The position numbers and the translations under genes are program-made. A DNA stretch of 997 nucleotides from the NCBI RefSeq assembly GCF_003334385.1, contig NZ_QOWN01000136.1. One strand, written 5' to 3'. The DNA is from Escherichia coli (GTDB taxonomy: Bacteria > Pseudomonadota > Gammaproteobacteria > Enterobacterales > Enterobacteriaceae). The notes under the pieces were generated by a model. The model had not been told where the DNA came from. It searched no databases and worked only from the letters and a program-made list of their open reading frames with translations. Positions 201-356 of the stretch are shown one piece after another (position 1 is the first letter of the stretch; each line of letters begins with the position of its first letter).

Positions 201-356
201 ATGAGGGACACCCCCGCGAACCATAAACGCGGTAAAAACCCGGTGTGCATCGTTTTTGATTATTCCCGCACACTCACGCAGAAGGAATTCCCCGTCGGGC
301 TACGGTCATGGTTAATGCGGGAATACGGCGACGATACAGCGCAGCTAAAAGGGTAA
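201..356 (+). CDS. Hypothetical small basic protein (51 aa) in the cos-bor spacer; may not be a real gene
   Basis: ATG at 201 with a possible Shine-Dalgarno AGGA at 188..191 (9-nt spacing), stop TAA at 354..356. It is the in-frame internal start of the 132..356 track ORF, whose own TTG start at 132 has no recognisable RBS. No recognisable domain or family. The underlying DNA resembles, with indels, what I recall upstream of lambda bor, which argues for conserved non-coding sequence as much as for a gene. Confidence 0.2.
   Translation: MRDTPANHKRGKNPVCIVFDYSRTLTQKEFPVGLRSWLMREYGDDTAQLKG

Follow-up and report, generated by a model that had tools for sequence, protein, structure and literature searches.

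The window, by which we mean the whole 997-nt stretch of Escherichia coli DNA analyzed here, belongs to a lambdoid prophage that lies in the orientation opposite to the lambda map. Taken in reverse complement, its first 46 nt read as a left cohesive end of the lambda type, and the records of the linear, cos-ended phages 434 and 2G7b terminate exactly at position 47. We placed cosN by the lambda end sequence, and cosQ by alignment with the annotated cosQ of phage 434 (Table 1). Toward the other end of the window lie the bor/iss lipoprotein gene and, on the minus strand from position 849, the C-terminal parts of Rz and Rz1. Between cosQ and bor we find an open reading frame on the bor strand and a conserved non-coding block, which overlap. 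Near-identical loci (99%–99.8%) are common in E. coli chromosomes; window 1–524 is found at a median of two places per E. coli genome, a count made without genomic context.

Table 1. Features of the window (positions from its first letter; helices are predictions)
Feature	Position	Strand	Details and basis
cos (cosN presumably ~35–46; cosQ 70–76)	35–76	−	Record ends of 434 and 2G7b; alignment with cosQ of 434
Conserved non-coding block (H1, variable hairpin region, long hairpin)	164–343		Alignments, flank classes, structure statistics
H1	164–192		Stem GTCCTG 164–169 / CAGGAC 187–192; conserved 17-nt loop TTTCTTCCACCCCCGCA 170–186
ORF, 51 aa from ATG (74 aa from TTG at 132)	201–356	+	Probably an incidental open frame
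H2, small hairpin	214–232		CCGCG 214–218 / CGCGG 228–232; read from alignments
Long imperfect hairpin P1–P4	243–342		Predicted on both strands
P1a	243–247 / 337–342		
P1b	249–254 / 330–335		
P2	261–270 / 316–325		TATTCCCGCA / TGCGGGAATA; perfect 10-nt inverted repeat
P3	277–281 / 300–304		CGCAG / CTACG
P4	289–291 / 297–299		
bor/iss lipoprotein gene	525–817	+	Neighbor of the conserved block, not part of it

Phages 434, 2G7b, and Turner carry ylcI (DUF3950) between cosQ and the block; the gene is absent here, and an unrelated 86-nt segment (78–163) stands in its place. A terminator-like hairpin with a T-run (133–148, late strand) lies within this segment and outside the block, and related GCGACC...GGTCGC motifs recur in other flank classes. 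On the bor side, a direct repeat CATTTA-N5-CGTTTA (458–474) is followed 12 nt on by TAGGAT (487–492), which lies 33 nt upstream of the ATG of bor; at the place aligned to this repeat, lambda and 933W read TGTTTA-GGGTT-TGTTTA. We take the repeat to fit the PhoP-box consensus and K-12 borD (vboR) to be activated by PhoP; our literature check retrieved no source for the PhoP activation of borD. The two copies of another direct repeat, CACAGGATTCTG (385–396) and CATAGGATTCTG (485–496), are 100 nt apart. The second copy shares sequence with the putative −10 region of bor, and the first could therefore be a promoter element too, either a duplicate or a second one. The bor cassette is also flanked by a perfect 11-nt inverted repeat (GCAGATAGAGC, 360–370; GCTCTATCTGC, 846–856), whose left arm lies 17 nt inward from the point where homology with bor-less phages ends (343) and whose right arm overlaps the Rz stop codon. 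This repeat may mark the ends of an inserted bor accessory gene or may be due to chance.

The preliminary description of this DNA had reported the open frame and placed it between cosQ and bor on the strand of bor, and both the coordinates and the placement are correct: The longer form occupies 132–356 of the plus strand, and the internal ATG at 201 yields the 51-aa peptide MRDTPANHKRGKNPVCIVFDYSRTLTQKEFPVGLRSWLMREYGDDTAQLKG. The peptide had been called rich in Arg, Lys, and His, which mildly overstates its composition (five Arg, four Lys, and one His versus four Asp and two Glu). The ribosome-binding site is indeed marginal, the sole purine-rich stretch seen on direct reading being GGCGAG, which ends 2 nt before the ATG. 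The absence of a recognizable family likewise stands, neither the 51-aa nor the 74-aa peptide having a match in PHROGs, NCBIfam, or Pfam even at E ≤ 10; for a similarity to YlcI/YnfO (DUF3950), there is no BLASTP alignment at E ≤ 100 and no Pfam match. The frame is not, as had been supposed, the only candidate coding unit of the segment: The opposite strand holds two more ORFs, of 52 aa (92–250) and 54 aa (109–273), and they are likewise not conserved. We rejected them as candidates for a small late-strand gene, since they shift frame and sequence between lineages and show no third-position excess. PGAP calls the frame under study a hypothetical protein (WP_001205742.1) in one genome that is 99.6% identical; in another genome, 99.8% identical, the frame is intact and unannotated.

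Homologous loci were gathered from annotated phages, viral contigs, and genomes, and 120 of them could be evaluated. The frame is open from an upstream ATG through the core in only 35 of these 120 loci. Of the 85 broken frames, 54 are stopped just ahead of the core (by TAA in the 434 type and by TAG in another type), 18 are interrupted within the core by a premature stop or a frameshift, nine show both defects, and four lack an ATG. The lambda DNA upstream of bor is similar to that of the window and frame-disrupted, as had been described, by a 1-nt deletion in the T-run at 253–257, which leaves lambda one T short, and by an in-frame TAG; copies of the lambda and 933W types end prematurely, reading ...GLWT and then a stop. 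In total there are at least four independent kinds of disruption, including those in the viable phages lambda, 434, 933W, and 21. Homology stops at window 343, and the last codons of the frame are wholly different between contexts.

Nor do the substitutions point to a protein. Variable sites number 19, 13, and 18 at codon positions 1, 2, and 3, respectively (35 sites each), which amounts to no codon-position bias in the ORF, and there is a third-position excess in no frame. Pooled pN/pS among intact variants is 0.59, versus 0.57 in a shifted control frame; for bor at the same loci it is 0.21. A search of 5.8 billion proteins returned only hypothetical proteins of Escherichia and Shigella, 35–79 aa long and with no domains, and these relatives are ragged, near-identical ORF calls with no longer ancestor. 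Some ORF copies, in clusters P0011, P0045, and P0065, are named "arginyl-tRNA synthetase" in UniRef and NCBI, a label that on a 35- to 60-aa peptide is evidently a propagated mis-annotation. The C-run CCCCC at 211–215 is lengthened to ~10 C in two loci (L044 and L102), which destroys the start region of the ORF, and a C-run near 402–408 (399–410) varies in length among 434, 2G7b, and Turner; such variable runs are either slippage-prone sequence or assembly error. Stops or frameshifts in the homologous regions of related phages had been named in advance as what would speak against a protein, and we find both. Given the breaks in the frame, a pN/pS equal to that of the control frame, and relatives that are ragged ORF calls only, the ORF is very unlikely, on the sequences compared, to be a gene.

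The block with which the ORF overlaps is without protein-coding constraint and has discrete boundaries: Homology to other phages begins near 164 and ends sharply at 343. Identity between the window and lambda is 82% in the core, 42% in the spacer between block and bor, and 93% in bor, and the segments therefore have separate histories. The third codon positions of bor are 90% identical between the window and lambda; an attempt to use bor silent sites to calibrate the conservation of the block failed, since the mosaic histories differ between segments.

We found the block in 433 out of 50,697 phage records, including those of lambda, 434, 21, the Stx phages (among them 933W), and six Salmonella phages (ES18, SPN3UB, and S135 included). 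It is joined to at least 18 upstream and at least 11 downstream flank classes, in many combinations, and it always lies between lysis-region genes and packaging genes in a fixed orientation with respect to the late operon. Downstream of it (in window orientation) there is either bor or a late-strand gene, the latter being Rz itself or a KilA-N-type, Rha-type, or other small accessory gene and then Rz; in bor-less phages, the block starts 12–17 nt past the Rz stop. Upstream there is cosQ within ~100 nt (as in the window), ylcI, lambdap78/ybcV, or, in phage 21, late-strand genes. In 434 and lambda, the block comes directly after same-strand genes, ylcI and lambdap78/ybcV, respectively. The accessory genes (bor, KilA-N/Rha-type genes, ylcI, and ybcV) vary from phage to phage, coming and going on either side of the block.

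The lambda copy (~nt 46,865–47,050) lies between bor and lambdap78, 1.5 kb from cos, and the DLP12 prophage of K-12 has a lambda-type copy between borD and ybcV, at which nothing is annotated, an sRNA included. In ES18, which we take to be a headful packager, the block is located between rha and the end of the record, where the terminase genes begin; on a Salmonella-type contig, it is separated from a preceding late-strand gene by ~115 nt and from the small terminase gene that follows by ~85 nt; and in 933W, it adjoins a different terminase. The distance from cos in lambda, the other terminase of 933W, and the presence of the block in ES18 argue against a packaging-related function tied to cos, which the preliminary description had considered for this segment. 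We also rejected the block as a 5′ leader of bor, since it is found without bor and a PhoP-box-like repeat with a −10-like hexamer lies nearer to that gene (458–492). Because it occurs in contexts that lack each of them, the block is tied to neither bor nor cos but to the lysis/packaging junction.

Every copy whose neighborhood we examined occupies this same syntenic position in a lambdoid phage. Species-representative genomes, scanned with anchors from the lower stem, gave only Escherichia together with chance matches or tiny contigs in unrelated taxa, and no new lineages; viral contigs, with E. coli-type P2 arms excluded, yielded the Salmonella type, a single E. coli variant, and nothing else. 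Contigs of 351–468 bp assigned to Pseudomonas and Thiomicrorhabdus, and others assigned to Streptomyces and to MAGs, matched the block scan, and two contigs (L136 and L160) carry window-type sequence downstream of the block. The odd-taxon contigs are probably coliphage (lambda) or E. coli DNA contamination. In Escherichia phage Tritos (OV696610.1, 46156–46219), the match is limited to the H1 part (window 164–230), showing that H1 and the long hairpin need not occur together.

The helices of Table 1 were derived from RNAalifold and manual inspection. In an alignment of 27 sequences, 93.8% of cells are paired, versus 32%–45% in slid registers. Nine pairs show two-sided change, compared with 4.5 ± 1.1 in shuffled data (none of 500 shuffles reaches nine) and zero to two in slid registers; these changes fall in five of the six pairs of H1 and in four of the 10 pairs of P2. 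The compensatory changes come mostly from the Salmonella lineage, E. coli phages alone contributing a few pairs. In Salmonella, the H1 stem is CTCGA/TCGAG versus TCCTG/CAGGA, with the loop kept, and P2 is TATCATTGCA/TGCGATGATA versus the E. coli-type TATTCCCGCA/TGCGGGAATA. One locus (L217) again forms a P2 pair that its relative L024 has lost, and in two others (L105 and L123), P4 is deleted and P3 retained. At the H2 site, each lineage has a hairpin of different sequence (434, CTGCG../..CACAG; 933W, TCTCG/TGAGA; Salmonella, CAGC/GCTG); H2 is without a valid statistical score because indels shift the register, and a first registration that was off by one column scored poorly.

Scored by alifold against column-shuffled alignments, the balanced set has z = −6.7 for the bor strand and z = −3.3 for the late strand. 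Single-sequence folding energy is no better than that of shuffles (z values of −0.1 to −1.4). The long stem is for the most part invariant and to that extent is silent on pairing either way, and the independent lineages are few (the E. coli-type sub-lineages and one Salmonella type), so that compensatory events are few as well. The sequences of the loops and internal loops are more conserved than a simple stabilizing stem-loop needs. No Rfam 15 covariance model matches within 150–360, even at E ≤ 10. By comparison of these sequences, at least two of the predicted helices, H1 and P2, are maintained by compensatory substitutions. The preliminary description had held a protein and a conserved non-coding or structured sequence to be equally good explanations of the segment. 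The protein half of this statement fails, and the compensatory changes in two helices and the alifold scores support the other: The alternative of a conserved non-coding, hairpin-forming module, present in lambda itself, is right. We regard the block as very probably a non-coding structured element rather than a gene.

The strand preferred in folding differs between data sets, the E. coli-only set favoring the late strand and the balanced set the bor strand, with a mean energy difference between strands of 0.0 kcal/mol in the balanced set. U·G on the bor strand is common in the Salmonella lineage, as is C·A (late-strand G·U) among E. coli variants. Scans for promoters and terminators gave no candidate in or flanking the block on either strand, in E. 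coli or Salmonella context. In particular, no sigma-70 promoter-like site precedes the block on the bor strand in either context, and inside 164–343 there is no Rho-independent terminator-like site on either strand. The late operon transcript is driven from pR′ under Q antitermination, and many contexts have no bor-strand gene near the block.

Our best explanation overall, held with moderate confidence, is that an incidental ORF lies over a structured non-coding block that acts in the late transcript. The block (~180 nt, ~164–343) would fold into H1, with its sequence-conserved loop, and the ~100-nt imperfect hairpin P1–P4, and its action would be that of an RNA, most probably as a cis-acting part of the long late transcript. 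It could be an intercistronic processing or stability structure parting the lysis message from the terminase/head message, possible forms being an RNase III or RNase E entry site or a protective stem-loop. A cis structure in the late transcript is ranked first because that transcript is the only one known to cross the site in every context, bor-strand genes being often absent. Taken by itself, this late-transcript mechanism is a tentative proposal, and we suspect that it is somewhat more apt to be wrong than right. The broader statement, that lambda and more than 400 phages of the lambdoid, Stx-converting, and Salmonella ES18-like kinds share at their lysis/packaging junction a structured RNA not described before, one that serves late-transcript control or acts as a regulatory or antisense RNA of lysogens, has in our judgment a little less than an even chance of being true.

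We infer a ranking in which the cis structure in the late transcript is followed by a regulatory or antisense RNA of the bor strand, then by a role at the DNA level, and then by a relic or a small protein. The block could give rise in lysogens to an independent bor-strand RNA, or belong to a leader or 3′ UTR of accessory-gene transcripts, acting in trans on mRNAs of the host or of phages, or antisense to the late transcript of induced or superinfecting lambdoid phages; we think this unlikely. On the balanced alignment, the bor strand has the better consensus (z = −6.7, SCI 0.52) and tolerates the U·G of ES18-type copies, which would be tandem A·C mismatches on the other strand, but the E. coli-only set prefers the other strand. 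The H1 loop is C/U-rich on direct reading, as are many sRNA seed regions, and the block comes directly after same-strand genes in 434 (ylcI) and lambda (lambdap78/ybcV), but in many phages neither neighbor of the block is a same-strand gene. There is precedent for sRNAs and antisense RNAs of prophages at such accessory sites (PMC4104026; PMC7067206). Against this, no promoter- or terminator-like signal flanks the block in E. coli or Salmonella context, no Rfam model matches it, and no sRNA is annotated at the K-12 DLP12 copy. A function of the DNA itself, whether as a single-stranded hairpin or cruciform (for example, a rolling-circle priming or protein-loading site) or as a recombination linker between modules, seems to us improbable. 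A mere crossover sequence needs no compensatory changes that preserve pairing, and the frequent G·T and A·C cells fit a duplex cruciform less well, although the two strands are equal in folding, Watson-Crick pairs make up 81% of paired cells, the block coincides exactly with a mosaic junction at which many flanks are combined, and no transcription signals were found. We know of no precedent for such a DNA site at this lambda position.

The block might also be a functionless relic, such as an old gene end or insertion scar carried along by hitch-hiking, with its structure coincidental. The lower identity of the core (82%) than of bor third codon positions (90%) between window and lambda is consistent with this, as are the unremarkable folding of single sequences and the small number of independent lineages. 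We nevertheless consider a relic very improbable, since the block has been kept while both its flanks were repeatedly replaced, is present in two genera, and shows two-sided pair changes above every shuffle and every slid register; a former gene, moreover, is supported by no frame. Scarcely credible is that the ORF encodes a genuine small basic protein in the lineage of the window type, of which the other lineages would hold pseudogenes or shorter forms (such as a 37-aa GTG form in phage Turner). Of the six frames, this one is the most open (19 out of 30 unique cores have no stop in it), as is to be expected with a sample made up mostly of sequences close to the window type, and it is called by PGAP and other pipelines in some genomes. 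Set against these points are four or more kinds of disruption in viable phages, a C terminus that is not homologous past 343, a lack of codon-position bias, a pN/pS like that of the control frame, the absence of a family, a poor ribosome-binding site, and a C-run of variable length within the ORF.

As a small protein, the ORF is probably something ordinary, an annotation artifact, and WP_001205742.1 and its ragged relatives, which are called inconsistently in near-identical genomes, are best treated as a probable false gene. What deserves attention is that a discrete ~180-nt block with covarying helices stands unannotated in the late region of lambda, among the best-studied DNA, and in Stx phages, at a boundary where accessory virulence genes such as bor/iss insert. 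If it is a functional RNA, it would offer a handle on how a late transcript of 20-plus kb is divided up between the lysis genes and the virion genes and on why accessory genes accumulate at the lysis/packaging junction. If it is functionless, it is still useful as a marker of a module boundary.

The block appears to be previously undescribed. The searchable literature, which leaves key subscription papers outside its scope, places no known sRNA at this position, Pas and svsR included, and contains none of the literal block sequences. The WP_001205742.1 cluster is an annotation of this 156-nt ORF and not a characterized family; its members are 35–79 aa long and have no domain. The anti-sRNAs AgvB and AsxR (PMC4104026) and STnc6030 of BTP1 (PMC7067206) resemble the block in being non-coding elements of lambdoid prophages at conserved positions beside "moron" genes. 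AgvB and AsxR, however, are 51–60 nt long, end in Rho-independent terminators, and map to the pR′ site, which separates Q from the genes for lysis (PMC4104026), whereas the block has ~180 nt, shows neither promoter nor terminator signals, and is placed beyond the lysis genes. REP-type palindromes share with the block an imperfect, intercistronic, non-coding character and a possible role in differential mRNA stability. They are dispersed in hundreds of copies, whereas no copy of the block was seen outside its one syntenic position among the neighborhoods examined, and the block is much longer, has several helices, and conserves its loop sequences; it is not known to resemble the REP or ERIC consensus. 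There is also a likeness to the sib/tI retroregulator of lambda and to other RNase III processing hairpins in polycistronic transcripts of phages. The block differs from these in having no sequence similarity to them and no embedded terminator and in its position at the lysis/packaging junction. Like them, it is a long imperfect hairpin of about two helical turns with internal loops, is non-coding, and comes immediately after a gene of an antiterminated phage transcript, and, like them, it may act in cis on mRNA stability, as we propose here.
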